DNA of 64,000 nucleotides from Gammaproteobacteria bacterium. Lineage in GTDB: Bacteria; Pseudomonadota; Gammaproteobacteria; Ga0077536. The notes below the pieces were generated by a model, which saw only the letters and a list, made by a program, of their open reading frames with translations, made no database searches and was not told the origin of the DNA. The position numbers and the translations under genes are program-made. The stretch is from NCBI GenBank assembly GCA_963662545.2, contig CAXXLL010000003.1, positions 2,752,001-2,816,000 of the forward strand. Reading direction: 5' to 3'. Below, piece by piece: positions 1,766-21,595 of this stretch (positions are counted from its first letter, which is position 1; every line of letters begins with the position of its first letter).

Positions 1766-2125
1766 TTCGAGATCGCAGACATCCTGCATGCCAATCCGCG
1801 ATGTCAGCATGTCCGCCGCTCGGACGAACTCCGCTGTCAGATCGAGACCGCTTACGCGACAGCCGAATTCCGCGGCCAGCGTGCGTGCAGGGCCGCTGAT
1901 ATCGCATCCGAGGTCGAGCACATGCATGTCCGCCCGCATACCGGCAAAAGCGGCGAGGTCACGGGTCGAGGCAATACCGCCGCCATGAAATTCGTCGAAT
2001 GGCGTCCGGTCGCGGCGTTCGAGTCGTTCCAAGTCACGCCCCGCCACCCGCAGGCTGGCGAGAATCCGGGCGCAACTATCGGCGCTGCCGTAATGCTGCT
2101 CGACGGCGTGCTCAGGCGACTCCAT
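1766..2125 (-). pseudogene. SAM-dependent methyltransferase, 3' truncated by the IS91 remnant
   Basis: DEFHGGGIAST..HVLDLGCDISGPAR (degenerate motif I); the ORF fuses into IS91 sequence. Confidence 0.7.
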
Positions 2126-2146
2126 CAGCCACCCGCCAGGCGTGGT

Positions 2147-2890
2147 TCAACGAAGGTAGTCATGCAGAACCTGGCCGTGTTCGAGCGCGCACGAGCTTTC
2201 GAAGAAGTAGCCCCCCTCAATGGATTTAATCGGAATGTCGGCCACGCGATCCGATGGCGATTCACCGAAGACGAGGGTGGCGGGGCCGCAATGCACATCT
2301 CCGATCTGCATGTTGGTCAGTGTGGTCGTGGTCAGTTGATCGACGTCAGGCGGGGCGCCGAGTGCGACGTTGGGGATGAACTTGCGCGTAACCCATTCGG
2401 TTGTGCCGCCCAGGTCTTCCGCAGGCATCATTGATTGCATGCGCATGGACGCGTCGATCACCGTGAACCCGCCGCGCTCAACCGTCGCGCGCACGACATC
2501 ATCGGTGGTGTCGAGCGTCAGGCGGCCAAGTTTCTTGGGATACCCCCAGATTTCGCGCCCAGCGCCCATCGCGACGTCGCTATCCAGTATCATATAAATA
2601 CTGAAGTTGACGAAGCGTCGATCGTAGGTTGCATGAGTGGAAATGTGCGCCTCGTAATAGCGGCCGACGCCAGAGCACAGGAAATCCACGACCTGGGCGA
2701 ACATCAGGCTATCCTTGTTTGGTGTTAGCGGGGGCGGAACCAGTTGGCGCAGAACCTTGGGGTCTGTTTTGAACGCCACAGTGATCTGACTCATTTCGCG
2801 ATAATGGAACGGCGGTTTGCCGTAAAGTTCGGACAATTCGGGCATGCTATAGCTGCGCGCACTCAAGCTGTCAGCGGGCTTCCGGGCCAT
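2147..2890 (-). CDS. Acetoacetate decarboxylase family protein
   Basis: AGREIWGYPKKLG Schiff-base Lys motif; RBS GGAG upstream. Confidence 0.85.
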   Translation of the reverse strand: MARKPADSLSARSYSMPELSELYGKPPFHYREMSQITVAFKTDPKVLRQLVPPPLTPNKDSLMFAQVVDFLCSGVGRYYEAHISTHATYDRRFVNFSIYMILDSDVAMGAGREIWGYPKKLGRLTLDTTDDVVRATVERGGFTVIDASMRMQSMMPAEDLGGTTEWVTRKFIPNVALGAPPDVDQLTTTTLTNMQIGDVHCGPATLVFGESPSDRVADIPIKSIEGGYFFESSCALEHGQVLHDYLR

Positions 2891-3164
2891 GGTCGTCTCC
2901 CCAGGGAACTGAAATGAAGGCGACTAGTATATCCGCAGGCGGTCACACGGCAGATTTCGACATGGATATAAGTAGCCTGAAATGCGCAGAAAACTGATTG
3001 TCGTCGTGTTCGCCGCGCTCGCCGCATTACGATGGCCCGGCGGGCACTCATTTCGATGGTGTGCACTTCCATAGACTAAAGTGCGGAGGTATGCATGATG
3101 CCACTTTGAGCGGCTGCGTCGGACGGCGGCGGCGATCCGGACCCGCCCCGCGTGCAGGCGGCGC

Positions 3165-6295: not shown

Positions 6296-6695
6296 CTCGA
6301 AAGGCCGGCCATGTCGAGAACCCTCGGGATATGCCGCTCCCAGCCGAGCGCCATGAAATGCACGCCGGCACAGACTCCGTCGAGCGCTCCGATGGTACGC
6401 GCCGCTATCTCGAAGCTCGTCATAACGACGTCCTCGGCGTCGCGAAGCGCTTCCATGATCGCGTCGGGGACGTTGATCCCGGGGACGTTGCCGCCCAGGT
6501 CCCGGTCCTGATTCAGGGACTGCACGGTCTTCAGCAGGCCGATCGCCTCGAGATTGAAGACGGCTTTCGCGTCCGGGTGGTCGCCCGCGGCGGGATCGTC
6601 ACCTGACATGCACACCACGTTGCGCAGCCCGAGCGCGTGCGCGGACAGCAGATCCGCCTGCAGGGCGATGCGGTTTCGATCGCGATCCGAGCTTG
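6292..6695 (-). pseudogene. Methylenetetrahydrofolate reductase fragment (5' truncated, internal deletion)
   Basis: RDRNRIALQADLL..GLRNVVCMSGD..GDHPDAKAVF..GVHFMALGWE. Confidence 0.75.
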
Positions 6696-6747
6696 CACAT
6701 GTTTTTACGCGGGATCCCCTTACTCCCGGCGCGCGCGGGTACCACAG

Positions 6748-8227
6748 GCATATAGGAAATATAACCCCCTTATATGGTGGGTTTCCAGGCTATCGGGTTA
6801 TTCATTGTGGCGGGACTGACGCTGTTCATGGCGTGATCAGGCGGTGGTTGCGGCGGAATTTGTGTGGAATTTAGGGCGAGATCGGGCGGACATGCGGGGT
6901 CAGGTTGAACAAGAGCCTGCCGCATCGGGGCACGGCATCTGTGGGGGAACGGGGCAGTTCAGGTTGTGTTGAACAGGCTGGCCTGAGGGGGTGCCCGGGG
7001 TTCGGGTAATGAATTGATCCGGGTGATGGGCTTGGTTCTGTCGAGGTGGTCGAGAATCTTGCGGATGACGAGGGGGTCTTCGATGCAGGCCATGACCTTC
7101 AGGGTGCCGTCACAGGCCTGGCAGGTGGTGATGTCGATGTGGCCTACAGGGATGTAGGTCAGGGGCATGAGCAGGACGCGGAAGCTTTGAAGACCCGCTT
7201 GAGGCGTTGCGCCCAGGTCGCCGCTCTTGCGCATCCCTGCGCCCGCGGCATTAGTGCATCCCTGCACGTCATGGCGGTATGGCGCTCGGCGGGGGTTCGG
7301 TCGTGTGTCTCGTCGGTGGCGCTCTTGCGGCCCTTGCCGCGCCTGGCCGGAGTGATCAGTGCCCGGTGTTTGCTGTTGGGGGCGAAGACACCGTGACAAA
7401 TTTATCTGGAATAAATTTGGACGACCGAAGGTCGCCCGAAGGGTGAGGAACAGGGATGTTCCTCATCAAAGCGGGTGAGGTTGACTCGGGGTTTGGGGAT
7501 CAGTGCGGCGAGGCGTGCAATGAAATCCAGCGGCTCGAAGATCACGTGGGTCGTTCCGTCACGCCAGGGGTTCTTGAGGGTGTATCGGACCTGGCTGTGT
7601 TCGGTCAGTGACAGGCGCTTTTCGGATACGGCGGGGCGGGTGATGGTGCGGCACAGGCGTTCGAGCTTGTCGCGTTCATGGGCTTTGGCCGCCACACCGG
7701 CATGCAGGGAGAATCCGGCGACATTGCCCATCCGGGTGGAGAACGGTTCGTCGCTGGCGGGGAGTGACTGCAGGGTTAGCACCTTGCGTCCCTGGCGGGG
7801 TCCGGTGGCGATGCGGTAGGTGACGGAATGCCCGGTCAGGGACGCCATGGGATCGTCACTTTCGGTGTCCATGCTCAGGTATGCGGTCTCGTCATCGCGC
7901 ACTAGCAGTCCCTGGCGTTCGAGAAAGCGGCTCACGCGATGGGCAATGGTGTGGGTCAGCCGGGTGAGTTCGTCGCTCGTGGGTGCAGTCACCCATCGAA
8001 ACCGCGTGCCGGCGCGGGTGTCATCCACATAGACGCCATCGAGGAACAGCATGTGACAAATCGGCAGGACAGCCGATTTGCACGACCGAAGGTCGCCCAA
8101 AGGGTGGCGCACACGGATGCGCGCCATGTAAGTGGACATTGAGGTTGAGTGCGCCGCCGAAGCGCTGAATGAGGGTGACGGCGCCGGTGCGCGCGGTGGT
8201 GGCGGTGTAGCCGGCCTTGCGAATCAA
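6748..8227 (-). mobile_element. IS91/ISCR-like rolling-circle element; transposase 5'-truncated and disrupted by four small insertions
   Basis: TGAVTLIQRFGGALNLNVH.HMLFLDG (HUH), GFSLHAGV, LERLCR.ITRP, PKPRVNLTRF.HGVFAPN, AMTWAQRLKRVF; oriIS-like GGGGTTATATTTCCTATATG at 6749-6768. Confidence 0.9.
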
Positions 8228-8357
8228 GTGGGCCTCGCGGGTCGGCTATTCAGATCTGGGCGTGAATCGCAAGCGCGTCGAAGCGTTGCGAGCGCAGCTT
8301 CCGACCGGCGCGCGATAACGCGAGCCACACAACCAAGAGGTGTCCGCGTTCTTTTCA

Positions 8358-10817
8358 TCAAGCTCTGATTCGTTTCATGTCCGGGTCGTACAACGGTTTT
8401 AGTGAACAACTGCAGGGATAGAGCTCGCCGGCAATCTCGATCGCCCAGATCCCCCCGCTTAAATAGGCCTGGTCTACCGACTCTGAGGCTTCGATCAGCG
8501 CGAGACCGACGGCGCCGCCGAGGGTGTGGCCGTAGCTGCCGGCGCGCACGTAGCCGACCGGCTGCCCGTTGCGCCTGATGACTTCGGCATGCCACAAGAG
8601 CGGCTCCGGATCTTCGACCAGGACTTGTACCAGGCGCCTTTTGTACGGTCCGGCCGCCATCTTGCGCGCGGCCGCTTCTTTACCGATGAAGCCATTCGCT
8701 TTGCCGAGGTCGACGGCAAATCCCAGACCCGTTTCGAAAGGATTATCCGTATTGTCAAGATCGTGACCGAAGTCCCGGTAGCCCTTTTCCAGCCTGAGAC
8801 TTCCCAGCGCCTTGAGCCCCGCGTGCAAGAGCCCATGTTTCTTGCCCTCTGACACGAGCTCTTCATAAACATGTATCGCCTGTTCGCTCGATATATAGAG
8901 CTCGTAACCCAGTTCGCCGACATAGGTGATGCGCACGCAGAGCACGCGTGCATAGCAGATTTCTATTTCACGCGCAGTTCGGAATGGAAAAGTCTCATTG
9001 CTCATGTCAATCGAGGTTAATCCTTGTAGCAACGCGCGACTCGATGGACCCTGAATGTTGATCTGTGTGTACGCCGAGGTTACGTCGGTCACAAAAACGT
9101 GGGAATCAGCCGGGATATTACGGCGCATCCATGTTTCCGTGTGACGGTGCATGGTGTCGCTGACGACAACAAGGAAGGTTTCTTCGTCAAGCTTGCTCAC
9201 GGTGAGATCGGCTTCGAGATTGCCCTTTGGGTTGAGCCATTGGGTATAGGTGATCACGCCGCAGTCGCCATCGACATTATTGGCGGAGATGTGGTTCAAC
9301 ACGCGACCGGCGTCGCGGCCCTGGACCAGGAATTTCGACATGAAGCTCATATCCATCAGGATCACGCCCTCGCGACAAGCCTTGTGCTCGGCCTGCCAGT
9401 AGGGCCACCAGTTCATCCGCCCCCAGCTCAATTTGTCGACTTGCTGCTCTACATCCCCGGCAGCGTACCAGTCAGCGGCCTCCCAACCGCTGACCTCGCG
9501 AAAATACGCGCCGGCCTCCGCGAGGCGATCATGGAGTACGGAGCGTTTTACCCCACGTGCGGTCTCTGGTGATCGGGTCGGGTAGTGGCACTGGTAAACC
9601 ATGCCAAGCGTTTCAACCGTCCGCGCACGACGATGCTCGGCATTGGACTGATAACGATGGAGTCTGTCTATATTGAAGCCGGTCACGTCGACATCCGGTG
9701 AACCGTTGATGATCCAATGAGCCATCACGCGACCTAGACCGCCGCCGGAGAGAATGCCGATCGAATTGAGTCCAGCCGCAACGAAATAGTTTTTCAATTC
9801 CGGCGCCTCACCAACGATCGGCTGCAGGTCCGGCGTGAAGCTTTCTGGCCCGCAGAAGAACTTCCTGATACCCGTTTCGATCGACACAGGCACTCGGCTC
9901 ATGGCCTTCTCCAGGTACGGACCCATCCGCTCCAGATCCGGCTCGAGTTCGGCAAAAGAAAAGTTTTCCGGAATGCGCCCGACATTCCACGGCGCGCACA
10001 CCGGCTCGAAGAGGCCGATCAGCAGTCCGCCCACTTCCTCACGAAAGTAACCGTAATGCGAAGGATCTTCGAGAACCGGCCAGTCGCGACTCAAGCCGTC
10101 AATGTCGTCGGTGATCACGTAGTAATGCTCCGCAGCCTGGTTGGGGATGCTCACACCATGCTCGGCGCCAAACTGGCGAGCCCACATCCCTGCGCAATTG
10201 ACAACGTACTCACACGCGATCGAGCCTTCCTCAGTAGTCACGCTGGTGACCCGTCTGTTTTTCTGCTTGACACCTGTTGCGGCGATACCGGTAAACAGCT
10301 TCGCACCCTGCATGCGGGCACCCTTTGCAAGCGCCATGGTCAGGTCAACGGGGTTCACGCGGCCGTCGTCCCTGACATAAAAACCGGCCAAAATGTCGTC
10401 GGTCCGCGCGATCGGAAACAAGTCGCGAACCTCTTTTGGCGATATTTCCTCTACTTCGATCCCACAATAACGATTGAATGCCGCGATCCGGCGGTACTCC
10501 TCCAGGCGATCGGCGTCGGTAGCCACTTCAATAAACCCGCATTGATGGAGTCCGGTGGCCTGTCCCGTTTCCTGCTCCAGACGCGCGTAAAGGTCACGGC
10601 TGTATTTGCGCATCTCCGTCGAGGTTTCGGATGTGCTACCGAACGTGACCACGAGCCCCGCAGCGTGCCATGTGGTACCGGAAGTGATCTCATCACGTTC
10701 CAGCAATACCACGTCTTTACAACCCATGTTAACCAAGTGGTAAGCAACTGAAGTGCCTATTATTCCGCCGCCGATGATGACCACTTGCGCGGTGTCAGGG
10801 AGTTGCATGGTCGCCAT
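8358..10817 (-). CDS. GcvT-family FAD oxidoreductase (dimethylglycine/sarcosine dehydrogenase-like)
   Basis: IIGGGIIG, SGTTWHAAG, GPESFTPD, TYVGELGYE, LRLEKGYR; 819 aa. Confidence 0.92.
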   Translation of the reverse strand: MATMQLPDTAQVVIIGGGIIGTSVAYHLVNMGCKDVVLLERDEITSGTTWHAAGLVVTFGSTSETSTEMRKYSRDLYARLEQETGQATGLHQCGFIEVATDADRLEEYRRIAAFNRYCGIEVEEISPKEVRDLFPIARTDDILAGFYVRDDGRVNPVDLTMALAKGARMQGAKLFTGIAATGVKQKNRRVTSVTTEEGSIACEYVVNCAGMWARQFGAEHGVSIPNQAAEHYYVITDDIDGLSRDWPVLEDPSHYGYFREEVGGLLIGLFEPVCAPWNVGRIPENFSFAELEPDLERMGPYLEKAMSRVPVSIETGIRKFFCGPESFTPDLQPIVGEAPELKNYFVAAGLNSIGILSGGGLGRVMAHWIINGSPDVDVTGFNIDRLHRYQSNAEHRRARTVETLGMVYQCHYPTRSPETARGVKRSVLHDRLAEAGAYFREVSGWEAADWYAAGDVEQQVDKLSWGRMNWWPYWQAEHKACREGVILMDMSFMSKFLVQGRDAGRVLNHISANNVDGDCGVITYTQWLNPKGNLEADLTVSKLDEETFLVVVSDTMHRHTETWMRRNIPADSHVFVTDVTSAYTQINIQGPSSRALLQGLTSIDMSNETFPFRTAREIEICYARVLCVRITYVGELGYELYISSEQAIHVYEELVSEGKKHGLLHAGLKALGSLRLEKGYRDFGHDLDNTDNPFETGLGFAVDLGKANGFIGKEAAARKMAAGPYKRRLVQVLVEDPEPLLWHAEVIRRNGQPVGYVRAGSYGHTLGGAVGLALIEASESVDQAYLSGGIWAIEIAGELYPCSCSLKPLYDPDMKRIRA

Positions 10818-18681: not shown

Positions 18682-20442
18682 TCACCCTAGTTGATATTCG
18701 GGTCGGCTCAGCATCAGGTGCAATAGCACACGCAGCGGTTCTTCTAAATAGGTGCGGGCGGACAACACATCCTTCGTACCGAGTTCCCGTTCGAAAGCAT
18801 CGGCCAGCATCTTTAGTATCTCGTCGTCCGGCGCTACGGAGAAAAAACGCTCGATGAAATAATCGACCACCGCGGCAGGTGCCGCCAATTCCAGACTCAT
18901 GACCGAACGCGTTAAATCGAGGCGCGCAAGATGGCGGGGAATGGGTTTGACCCGTTCGATCGCCATCTGCCAGCCGCGGTAGCTGCCGTAGCGGGTATTA
19001 AAATCCTCTTCCCGGTCGACCATATTCGACATGGCCATCATGCCGTCGGTGTTTACTGCGTCAACCGGTCGGGTCGCGCTAGCCATGTCTTCGCCATCGC
19101 GCAAACGTCGGTGGACCGCGAGTATCTCAGCGCCGCTCGGGTATTCGGGATAGCGATCATTGGGTACGAACGCGATGTCAGGAAAGACCACATCGAGAAC
19201 GAAGTTGCCGCGCTCGATCAAGAGGCTCGGTGTGATCCAGCTGCGCCCGTAGCTCCAACCCGCCACCGTCGGCGGATGCATCAGGCGCTGCCCCAGGCTC
19301 TCGGTAAGCAGGTTGAAGTCGGGTGCGCCAGGAACTTCGGCCAAGCCAAATTTGCGGTAGGTTGAAATGACGAGTTCTACGGGGCTCTTGATCCGCGTAC
19401 CTATTGATCGCGAGGCGTAGAAGTCCCGTGACAAAAACAGTGTTTCAAGAAACGGTGTGATCTCGTAATTGAGTGCCTTGAGGCGCGCGCCCAGCACCAC
19501 TTTGAATGCCGGTGTTAGCTCATCGCTGACGAAGAATCGATACAGTTTGGCCGCGATGAATTCGGTCGTGGCGGTTTGGTCGAGGATGATATCGATCACT
19601 TCGACGCCGTCGAACCGCCCCGTGCGACCTAGGAATACTTTTTCATCGTCGTCGTGCTTGGCCGCGTCGATCTTGAATTCGAGACCCGCGTAGTTCCATC
19701 CGGTGAACGCGCGCGCGCCTTCACGTATATCTTGCTCCGAATAGTTACCGACGCCCATGGTGAACAGTTCCATGATCTCGCGCGCGAAGTTTTCATTCGG
19801 CGAGCCTTTGACGTTCACGCCCGCGTCGAGAAAAGCGAGCATCGCCGGATCCTGCGCGACGCCAAGCAGCAAGGTGCGAAAATTGCCGAGACCTGCGCTT
19901 TGAAACAATTCCAATTGCTTCAACATCTTCCGATAGTCGCGGACTTTATCCTCGTTGGTCGCGAAGTGCCCGTGCCAGAACAGCGCGACCTTCTCCTGCA
20001 AGGGGTAAGGCGTGGCCAGCATGCGTTGGGCCCACCAATAGGCCACCCGATCGGTTTCGAGACGACTGGCACGCAGCCAGTAAAAAAACTCGTTGACGAT
20101 CGCTTGCATGGGGCGATTGCCCGAGGTCTTGACTTCGATCCCGAGCGATTTACCCTGCTCGGCCGCGAGCGCCGTGGTGGCGGGACGGCTTGGCGGGAAG
20201 GGATCGAGCCCGTCGTTGAAGATGCCTGAGTGGTCGAACGGCGGGAGTGGATTTTCCGCGGCGTTGAACCGTACCAGCGTTTGCACCGCTTGCTGCGGTG
20301 ACATGCCCGCAAGGTGATCGATCTCAGCGGGGGTGCCGCCGAAGGCAGCGCGTTCCAACAGATGCCGGGCTTTGTCCCGGTCCCATTCTTTGGGGGCAAG
20401 AGGTGATAAGTCCAAGCGGATTCCTCCAGCGTTGATTCGCAT
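18682..20442 (-). CDS. DUF1800 protein (possibly 5' truncated)
   Basis: LFWHGHFAT, PNENFAREIMELFTMG, PPTVAGW, PEYQL; adjacent to DUF1501. Confidence 0.88.
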   Translation of the reverse strand: MRINAGGIRLDLSPLAPKEWDRDKARHLLERAAFGGTPAEIDHLAGMSPQQAVQTLVRFNAAENPLPPFDHSGIFNDGLDPFPPSRPATTALAAEQGKSLGIEVKTSGNRPMQAIVNEFFYWLRASRLETDRVAYWWAQRMLATPYPLQEKVALFWHGHFATNEDKVRDYRKMLKQLELFQSAGLGNFRTLLLGVAQDPAMLAFLDAGVNVKGSPNENFAREIMELFTMGVGNYSEQDIREGARAFTGWNYAGLEFKIDAAKHDDDEKVFLGRTGRFDGVEVIDIILDQTATTEFIAAKLYRFFVSDELTPAFKVVLGARLKALNYEITPFLETLFLSRDFYASRSIGTRIKSPVELVISTYRKFGLAEVPGAPDFNLLTESLGQRLMHPPTVAGWSYGRSWITPSLLIERGNFVLDVVFPDIAFVPNDRYPEYPSGAEILAVHRRLRDGEDMASATRPVDAVNTDGMMAMSNMVDREEDFNTRYGSYRGWQMAIERVKPIPRHLARLDLTRSVMSLELAAPAAVVDYFIERFFSVAPDDEILKMLADAFERELGTKDVLSARTYLEEPLRVLLHLMLSRPEYQLG

Positions 20443-21206
20443 ATAGGAAATATAACCCCCTTACATGGTGGGTTTCCAGGCTATCGGGTTATTCATTGTG
20501 GCGGGACTGACGCTGTTCATGGCGTGATCAGGCGGTGGTTGCGGCGGAATTTGTGTGGAATTTAGGGCGAGATCGGGCGGACATGCGGGGTCAGGTTGAA
20601 CAAGAGCCTGCCGCATCGGGGCACGGCATCTGTGGGGGAACGGGGCAGTTCAGGTTGTGTTGAACAGGCTGGCCTGAGGGGGTGCCCGGGGTTCGGGTAA
20701 TGAATTGATCCGGGTGATGGGCTTGGTTCTGTCGAGGTGGTCGAGAATCTTGCGGATGACGAGGGGGTCTTCGATGCAGGCCATGACCTTCAGGGTGCCG
20801 TCACAGGCCTGGCAGGTGGTGATGTCGATGTGGCCTACAGGGATGTAGGTCAGGGGCATGAGCAGGACGCGGAAGCTTTGAAGACCCGCTTGAGGCGTTG
20901 CGCCCAGGTCGCCGCTCTTGCGCATCCCTGCGCCCGCGGCATTAGTGCATCCCTGCACGTCATGGCGGTATGGCGCTCGGCGGGGGTTCGGTCGTGTGTC
21001 TCGTCGGTGGCGCTCTTGCGGCCCTTGCCGCGCCTGGCCGGAGTGATCAGTGCCCGGTGTTTGCTGTTGGGGGCGAAGACACCGTGACAAATTTATCTGG
21101 AATAAATTTGGACGACCGAAGGTCGCCCGAAGGGTGAGGAACAGGGATGTTCCTCATCAAAGCGGGTGAGGTTGACTCGGGGTTTGGGGATCAGTGCGGC
21201 GAGGCG
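20439..21206 (-). mobile_element. Second copy of the IS91/ISCR oriIS end (near-identical to 6748-7515)
   Basis: ~768-bp direct repeat including the same three small insertions. Confidence 0.92.
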
Positions 21207-21595
21207 CTGTTTGTGATGGGTGAAGTACAGTACCGTGAGTGGAAAGTGTGGACGCACCAGAACCTACTTCAGCGGAAAGATGATCTGCTCGAGGCCGAGT
21301 GTGAACAGCGGGAAACGGAGGTCCGGATGGCCCGGGAGCGCGAGGAGAAAATTCGGCGCGACTGATTCGATAAACTCCTCGACGACGCGGCCGCTTATCG
21401 GCAGGCGGAAGATATTCGCCAGTACGTCGAGCGCGTTCTAAGCGCCGTCTCGTACCAGTGTGTTAACGCTGCTCAAGAAGCAGTTGCAACATGGGCAGTG
21501 TGGGCGCGTGCACAGGCCGACGTGCTAGACCCGGTTAAATCTGGGCGGTTTTTGCTTCACGAAGAAGATACCGCGGGATCCGATGGTCAGTGAAT
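21207..21595 (+). pseudogene. Fragment of a hypothetical mobile-element protein
   Basis: Interrupted frame ..LLDDAAAYRQAEDIRQYVERV..WAVWARAQADVLDPVKS. Confidence 0.35.

Follow-up and report, generated by a model that had tools for sequence, protein, structure and literature searches.

In the IS200/IS605 and repetitive extragenic palindromic (REP) systems, transposition is single-stranded and guided by hairpins, and classic single-strand transposons show a replication-strand bias. Correia elements and the Rickettsia palindromic elements are small palindromic elements that reside within genes, and the phage T4 gene 60 gap and the mitochondrial 'byps' are translational bypass elements. The IS91/ISCR elements are important agents of gene mobilisation, resistance genes in clinical bacteria included. 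Their rolling-circle transposition exposes long single strands, of which the displaced one runs, in the published model, antisense to the transposase gene. Here we describe an element family first seen in a stretch of 64,000 nucleotides from a gammaproteobacterium of the GTDB lineage Ga0077536 (the window; assembly GCA_963662545.2, contig CAXXLL010000003.1, positions 2,752,001 to 2,816,000), where two of its members interrupt an ISCR2-like transposase gene. The members share one folded architecture, insert precisely, independently and at recurrent positions, and disrupt the transposase genes that receive them. They represent a widespread family of non-autonomous mobile elements of 72–76 nt. 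We regard it as probable, though far from certain, that its TG-type lineages (those preceded by TG) have ISCR2/IS91-like transposase genes as their special target.

The host gene in the window belongs to the Y2_Tnp/HUH transposases, as its central piece matches the Pfam family Y2_Tnp (PF04986, E 3.2e-22). Its nearest full-length relatives are 494–500 residues long, and identity amounts to 92% with the 497-aa protein P0001 and 73% with the ISCR2-type ISVsa3. When aligned to P0001, residues 155–189 correspond to 8230–8126, residues 189–437 to 8055–7189 and residues 436–496 to 7147–6965. The first ~154 codons are gone and the remainder is interrupted four times, at points where the intact homologues P0001, P0005 and P0074 all read through without a break. 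The features of the locus are as follows.

6965..8230, minus strand: remnant of an ISCR2/ISVsa3-like IS91-family transposase gene (Pfam, identity to P0001 and ISVsa3, alignment).
7396..7467, plus strand: site A copy of the element, 72 nt with four hairpins (sequence, alignment to P0001, folds).
8056..8128, plus strand: site B copy of the element, 73 nt net (aligned with an intact homologue).
21087..21158, plus strand: third element copy, identical to 7396–7467, in a duplicate of the 3′ part of this ISCR copy.
7219..7269, minus strand: small in-frame insertion of 51 nt (17 codons) between AM and TWAQRLKRVF, boundaries approximate.
7142..7188, plus strand: small frame-shifting insertion of ~47 nt between RVF and IDI, boundaries approximate.
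6748..6964, minus strand: untranslated 3′ part of the ISCR copy; the two copies in the window cease matching at ~6748.

The first-pass annotation had reported two multi-hairpin insertions of 71–72 bp, each placed before a His codon of the transposase, one adding a stop and the other a frameshift. Both segments are present, lie 661 nt apart and share one architecture (78% identity over 60 nt in register); the length given for the first is correct at 72 nt, whereas the second adds 73 nt net and not 71. The site A copy, whose top strand is the plus strand of the window and runs antisense to the transposase gene, lies between Phe and His in the conserved motif NLTRF^HGVFAPN and contributes exactly 24 codons in frame, among them TAA. 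The site B insert falls within the HUH motif, NLNVHLH^MLFLDG, and shifts the frame: His 189 is encoded on both sides of it, at 8128–8126 and 8055–8053, with 70 nt between and in frames that differ. TG is found at both sides of this insert, and the alternative reading is a 71-nt element plus TG. Both inserts break the transposase reading frame, as had been claimed. The third copy lies in a segment (20440–21207) that matches 6748–7516 with 99.87% identity. Of the smaller insertions, both in the C-terminal part of the gene, that at 7219..7269 contains two short hairpins (7229–7242 and 7254–7267) with GGGAT loops read on the minus strand, and that at 7142..7188 contains a hairpin (7143–7158) whose loop is identical to that of hairpin 1 of the 72-nt element. 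These single short hairpins have the GGGAT loop in common, occur as one set per strand and are found again at matching places of other ISCR2-like copies in the genome.

Four consecutive hairpins make up the 72–76 nt of the element. The first has a 9-bp stem and a loop that nearly always contains GGA; the two middle hairpins have G+C stems of 5 bp and 3 bp with loops of the G-N-A type (GAA, GGA, GCA, GTA); and the last has an 8-bp stem and the invariant loop C-A-n-G-G-A-n-G, of which the commonest form is ACAGGGATGT. The ends read ACAAAT... and ...CAT(G/C) and do not form an inverted repeat. The two end hairpins also differ from one another, the ends do not pair and there are no unpaired conserved cores. 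The two window segments fold far better than shuffled sequences on both strands, with z-scores of -5.10, -4.17, -4.91 and -4.86 as RNA (none of 200 shuffles was as good) and of -7.03, -5.13, -6.96 and -5.76 as DNA. Loops and ends are fixed and stems vary provided that pairing stays, which bears out the earlier suggestion of compensatory changes under selection for structure. In an alignment of 12 distinct copies of this genome, standard pairing holds in 98.0% of 300 cells, compared with 82.4% in shuffles, and both partners have changed in 15 of the 25 pairs, a level reached by none of 500 shuffles, although this control overstates the significance for aligned copies that are related sequences. 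A control that is independent of such relatedness, in which the partners were slid by 1–3 columns, leaves pairing at only 32–45%. The stems are under structural constraint.

On the element strand, the junctions read ..TG / ACAAAT.. on the 5′ side and ..CAT(G/C) / A.. on the 3′ side. There are no terminal inverted repeats and any target repeat is at most 2 nt long: alignment to P0001 demonstrates that the insertion at site A adds the element alone, with no duplication, and at sites B, C and D there is TG on both sides, so that a 2-nt duplication or a shared core is possible. The base 3′ of the junction is mostly A, C in several cases, T once and G in two loci (L101 and L104). Judged from these flanking letters, only the TG appears to be a firm part of the target. 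The G in L101 and L104 speaks against a ban on G at this position, which was rejected, and an 'immunity' of the intact gene through its TTC codons was dropped since both loci read G. Insertion before a His codon is observed at sites A and B but does not hold as a rule; the rule is insertion after TG on the element strand, and the His pattern arises because it is the reverse complement of this. Other sites lie before Ile or Met codons or receive the element in the opposite orientation, and lineages that are not of the TG type have different flanking letters. The 3′ end of the element resembles its own target, and head-to-tail arrays (L084, L056) are found because the 3′ end mimics the target. 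A comparison of target flanks with the element for complementarity, made by eye only, gave nothing convincing.

To survey the family we used a covariance model trained on ISCR-resident copies, with a cut-off of E<0.01. The model detects 61 copies in this 5.58-Mb genome and has matches in 24 of 41 related genomes, some of them from other families of the class. The ~26 best-scoring copies in this genome sit in ISCR2-like DNA, and the other 35 are further lineages built on the same plan; these lie between long open reading frames (ORFs), some in tandem and some as passengers in a conventional miniature inverted-repeat transposable element (MITE). With a strict pattern that itself required TG before the element, and hence covers the TG-type lineages, at least 106 loci were found in public genomes, counting one genome per species. 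Among the public matches listed, most are from Gammaproteobacteria (Woeseiaceae, Microbulbifer, Thiohalobacter, Lysobacteraceae and Methylococcales), with a few enterobacterial and Vibrio bins. The description of the inserts as non-autonomous and mobile was sound: our search for a longer, autonomous version sharing the first hairpin or the ends found none, and a further 18 hairpins resembling the first hairpin were assigned to other repeats; mobility is evident from the intact homologues that are empty at the exact points, from the 61 copies and from near-identical copies in diverged hosts.

The family is apparently absent from the literature examined. At the level of titles and abstracts, no published description was found under IS91 or ISCR combined with repeat, hairpin or palindromic, nor under CsrA combined with repeat; strings of the element sequence are absent from the papers searched, apart from one 11-mer that occurs, among the papers checked, in unrelated ones. 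Rfam gave no match over positions 6500–8600 of the window at E values up to 1, and a plasmid collection gave no match to a 101-nt query.

The distribution of copies points to a strong preference for ISCR2-like genes, as the first-pass annotation had proposed in speaking of a target preference. In this genome, 40 ISCR2-like loci and fragments occupy 21.2 kb, or 0.38% of bases, and hold 26 of the 61 copies (nominal binomial P ~1e-46, a value inflated by duplicated segments and by the ISCR-trained model). All TG-type copies of this genome are in ISCR2-like DNA and none is intergenic. Of 82 public matches examined for gene context, 26 lie in ISCR2-like genes by tblastn and 29 by blastx. The other IS91 subfamily of this genome, comprising three identical 406-residue genes and their relatives, has no element match when its positions are compared with the list of 61 copies. 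Within the ISCR2-like genes, about eight codon positions are hit recurrently and are shared across genera. In P0001 residues these are 189/190 (the HUH motif), 366–368 (DF^I/M), 383–385 (RF^H), 441–442 (IDI^E, sense orientation), 348–350 (sense orientation), 360–363, 175 and one or two N-terminal positions. Most sites hold their own element lineage across several genera; site A is the exception, with at least three lineages in this genome. Most ISCR-resident copies run antisense to the gene, namely 21 of 27 here and 22 of 29 in public genomes.

The insertions at a given site did not arise from a single event. Six copies at site A in this genome have a mutual identity of 0.90–1.00, compared with 0.56–0.83 for their 100-nt coding flanks (15 pairs; some flank values are lowered further by other insertions). 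Near-identical copies in diverged flanks therefore represent independent, site-directed insertions. Copies that occupy one site in different genomes show compensatory changes in their stems. Some host genes are otherwise intact and carry a single element: in L090 residues 4–495 align in one stretch, and in L019 and L068 residues 4–370 are open as far as the element. The only intact ISCR2-like gene of this genome (C3:2499011-2500498, minus strand; ~500 codons, 73% identity to ISVsa3) has empty sites. Among the 80 best ISCR2-like loci from metagenomes, 79 are without the element and one carries a match, in a set that was picked for full-length matches and is biased towards intact genes. Three identical element-bearing ISCR2-like fragments were also observed on contig C3 (2694825, 2702363 and 2710026), ~7.6 kb apart, which suggests that a segment of this length is tandemly repeated around them.

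The loops of the element resemble the binding sites of the translational regulator CsrA/RsmA. The SELEX consensus for CsrA is given as RUACARGGAUGU, with ACA and GGA fully conserved and the GGA in a hairpin loop (PMC4347634). The invariant loop of the last hairpin, in its commonest form ACAGGGATGT, fits this consensus, and csrA is present in the genome (C3:2532806-2532964, minus strand). A weak, partial element match (E 0.005) was observed ~130 nt downstream of csrA on the same strand (C3:2532615-2532678). In five public loci (L049, L051, L070, L073/L074 and L094), a TG-type element, at ~1503–1576 of each locus, directly follows an ATG with a ribosome-binding-like stretch in front of it; from its context this ATG looks like the original start codon. 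In all five, the ORF starting from the last ATG of the element is a real gene, encoding FtsQ, a DNA methylase with ParB_N, a prophage S49 peptidase, a CMD-family protein and a GTPase. Insertion here keeps the gene startable, since the element re-supplies GGA(G/T)G and ATG and places a GGA hairpin at the start. Among the 35 non-ISCR copies of this genome, none has a start-codon placement, compared with 192 of 2000 random places. The Rfam models for CsrB and RsmZ match no element copy. Tandem arrays were considered as CsrB-like small RNA genes and rejected, being passengers in a MITE with 21-nt inverted ends.

Two candidate enzymes were examined as partners of the element. Y1 transposases (PF01797) are represented by seven genes in this genome, to which no copy is adjacent (the model run unfiltered over six of these loci gave a best E of 0.4); these Y1 matches are weak and no canonical IS200/IS605 transposase is present. 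A Y1 partner was rejected on the lack of adjoining copies and on a weak phyletic link, Y1 genes being found in 18 of 24 element-bearing and 8 of 17 element-free genomes. The IS91-type transposase was rejected as the mover because the end of ISCR is unlike the element and because the element occurs in 15 of 16 genomes with Y2_Tnp and also in 9 of 25 without. The first-pass annotation had envisaged a cognate REP-associated tyrosine transposase (RAYT) or HUH enzyme; none was found, nor any Y1 gene flanked by copies. An IS110-family transposase gene (1797-3044, minus strand) lies ~250 nt upstream of the element in L048 on the same strand, the sole case among 49 loci.

The reading that we favour, and judge slightly more likely than not, may be set out as follows. 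An enzyme acting in trans would move the element as a folded single strand; its insertion is precise, in one orientation and directly 3′ of a TG, with A as the usual next base. The long single strands of rolling-circle transposition could make ISCR genes a preferred landing ground. About eight codon positions are hit there, the HUH catalytic motif among them, with loss of the reading frame. The window gene is a truncated relic with four such insertions, and on this reading the element would live on the insertion sequence as a parasite and silence it. Several results weigh against this account. No moving enzyme was found: one related genome, G019, is complete and contains six copies without any Y1 gene, nine genomes carry copies without an IS91-type gene, the outer (ori-side) end of the ISCR copy, at ~6748, has no likeness to the element, and the 120 ORFs that flank 49 non-ISCR public loci include only one IS110 and one rve transposase, with no recurrent partner. 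Replication-strand bias is absent from the 35 non-ISCR copies (15 versus 20), in a small sample with a weak skew. The enrichment in ISCR2-like DNA is exaggerated by segmental duplicates as well as by the training of the model. Only about eight of the many TG sites in the gene are used, a choice for which the account offers no reason. Most ISCR-resident copies do have the antisense orientation of the displaced strand, yet 6 of 27 in this genome and 7 of 29 in public genomes have the sense orientation, so the displaced strand is not the whole story. A bolder version is conceivable but doubtful: a structure-defined, enzyme-less hyperparasite would home to a few conserved ISCR/IS91 codons, that of the HUH motif included, via single-stranded intermediates and silence these elements, and, by rebuilding the ribosome-binding site and ATG where it lands behind start codons in other genomes, would double as a mobile CsrA-type module of translational control.

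How far the element might act chiefly as RNA is a related question. In such a reading, which is compatible with the one we favour, the top strand would be a two-site CsrA/RsmA-binding module that spreads as DNA, with the ISCR copies as by-products. The fit of the invariant loop to the SELEX consensus, the GGA of the first hairpin, the csrA gene and the five public loci in which the last hairpin and ATG form the translation start, the usual position of CsrA control, all speak for it. However, the GGA strand is antisense to the gene in most ISCR-resident copies (21/27 and 22/29) and to the flanking genes in a ribosomal-protein operon (L038), the CsrB and RsmZ models find nothing, and a DNA-binding enzyme would explain the conserved loops equally well, so that on these sequence comparisons we consider a main role as RNA rather unlikely. 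Passive accumulation, whereby the element inserts anywhere after TG and dead ISCR genes collect insertions that do no harm, is decidedly unlikely in our judgement. The genome is indeed littered with 40 ISCR2-like fragments, that in the window lacks its first part and has four insertions, and copies of other lineages lie between and not within long ORFs. The five start-codon copies are harmless where they are, which shows that selection filters the survivors. This explanation is at odds with the confinement of TG-type copies to the 0.38% of the genome that is ISCR2-like, with none in intergenic DNA, a far larger share of any bacterial genome, and with the use of the same nucleotide positions by several lineages in several genera. 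It is further opposed by the otherwise intact genes with a single insertion (L090; L019 and L068) and by the other IS91 subfamily, which has none.

Two explanations grant the host gene a different history. If the element were removed or skipped at the level of RNA or translation, as a mini-intron or by programmed bypass, the transposase would stay functional. The sites do lie in conserved motifs, including HUH, as for inteins and homing introns; ISCR copies with a single element can be multi-copy (at two contig ends in G006, twice 2.9 kb apart in G011 and three times at ~7.6 kb in this genome); and the codon before the element equals the last codon of the insert at sites B (His/His) and C (Met/Met). 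Matching take-off and landing codons are lacking, however, at site A and at site C of L068, the orientation is reversed in 6/27 and 7/29 copies, most hosts here bear further breaks, and the inserts, 72–76 nt long, have ends that do not pair, no unpaired conserved cores and no Rfam match. Of 23 public runs listed for this stretch, none is recorded as RNA. Contigs of four of these runs contain no exact skip of either element and break at the element borders; the sole skip near 7392–7472 has seven other letters between and stems from a diverged, uninterrupted relative. We hold this explanation to be very unlikely. The least probable of all, and scarcely credible, is that each site was hit once long ago and that the element diverged together with its ISCR lineage. 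The link between lineage and site is kept across genera, with site C always of the AAATCGGC-stem type and site D always of its own type, and site-A copies of different genomes differ by compensatory changes; but within the genome elements are far more alike (0.90–1.00) than their flanks (0.56–0.83), three lineages share site A and close intact homologues have empty sites.

Further observations concern the repeats of this genome (G000) and the context of individual copies. The MITE mentioned above has 21-nt terminal inverted repeats (TAGCAGCCTGTCGGACTTAGG) and carries one to three tandem hairpin units of 66–70 nt of the element superfamily as passengers; its passenger-carrying copies are:

C2:1819350-1820000, MITE with passenger units.
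C2:2528400-2528950, MITE with passenger units.
C3:876600-877150, MITE with passenger units.
C2:2395000-2395500, MITE with passenger units.

A separate multi-hairpin repeat of ~170 nt, present in ~12 copies, has ends that resemble those of this MITE, one internal hairpin with a ACAGGGATGT loop and another with a GGA loop. Its copies lie at the following positions:

C2: 1034172, 1095813, 1415719, 2408691, 2460911 and 392135, ~170-nt repeat.
C3: 431779, 618539, 1093971, 1556493, 1962150 and 2028301, ~170-nt repeat.

Nested or abutting elements were observed at C3:2213648-2213778, C3:2482413-2482574 and C3:1649384-1649603, comprising an element within the first hairpin of another, two adjacent lineages, and a three-element cluster with chimeric junctions. 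In five genomes of Woeseiaceae and related bins (L030, L047, L064, L096 and L102), a family copy occupies one shared intergenic position between lon and a SurA/PpiD-like gene, where it has apparently been inherited vertically and kept.

If the favoured reading is correct, an element that seeks and disrupts ISCR transposases would add a new layer of control over these movers of genes and could serve as a probe for their single-stranded intermediates. Covarying stems with fixed loops are the signature of a recognition system, be it an enzyme or an RNA-binding protein, and the family supplies a large, clean data set of such hairpins across a bacterial class. Should the loops bind CsrA and the start-codon copies function, post-transcriptional control sites would be spread by transposition.

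Compared with known systems, the family resembles REPs and IS200/IS605-type miniatures in behaviour but is without the features that define REPs, MITEs, introns or bypass elements. Like classical MITEs and the in-gene palindromic elements, it is small, non-autonomous and sometimes within genes or nested in mobile DNA, but the hairpin unit has neither the terminal inverted repeats nor the target duplication of classical MITEs. With homing introns, IStrons and inteins it shares recurrent insertion at conserved or catalytic codons of one gene family in distant hosts, and a parasitism of mobile DNA; in contrast to these, it has no capacity for ribozyme or protein splicing, inserts in both orientations and breaks the frame, and no self-splicing intron or ribozyme was recognised by Rfam at E values up to 1. 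Translational bypass elements are likewise hairpin-rich gaps of tens of nucleotides, and the matching codons at sites B and C are reminiscent of them, whereas the codons at site A and at site C of L068 do not match, and some orientations and non-coding places do not fit. The CsrB/RsmZ sponge RNAs and CsrA leader hairpins also have GGA in loops, two sites per unit and tandem units, but the element is dispersed, mobile, often antisense and without an Rfam match to these RNAs. The first-pass label of REP-like is apt for its behaviour: as in REPs and bacterial interspersed mosaic elements (BIMEs), it is short, structure-defined, non-coding and of high copy number, its stems vary around fixed motifs, many members are extragenic and tandem arrays are possible. 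In definition it differs, having four hairpins in 72–76 nt where a REP is a single palindrome of 20–40 nt, ends without a GTAG or CGTC tag, no Y1 gene flanked by copies, and whole lineages that reside within one protein-coding gene family. The miniatures of IS200/IS605 (palindrome-associated transposable elements, PATEs), which move by single-strand 'peel and paste', differ in that they have an autonomous relative or TnpA and a lagging-strand bias, for which our test was weak, and in that the two end hairpins of our element are unlike each other. In architecture they agree with the family described here, with no terminal inverted repeats, no clear target duplication (a 2-nt TG repeat is possible at sites B, C and D and absent at site A), hairpins near both ends, a single orientation immediately 3′ of a short and constant target, and an element 3′ end that resembles this target. 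By analogy with IS200/IS605 and REP, such junctions may be the marks of single-strand, hairpin-guided transposition.

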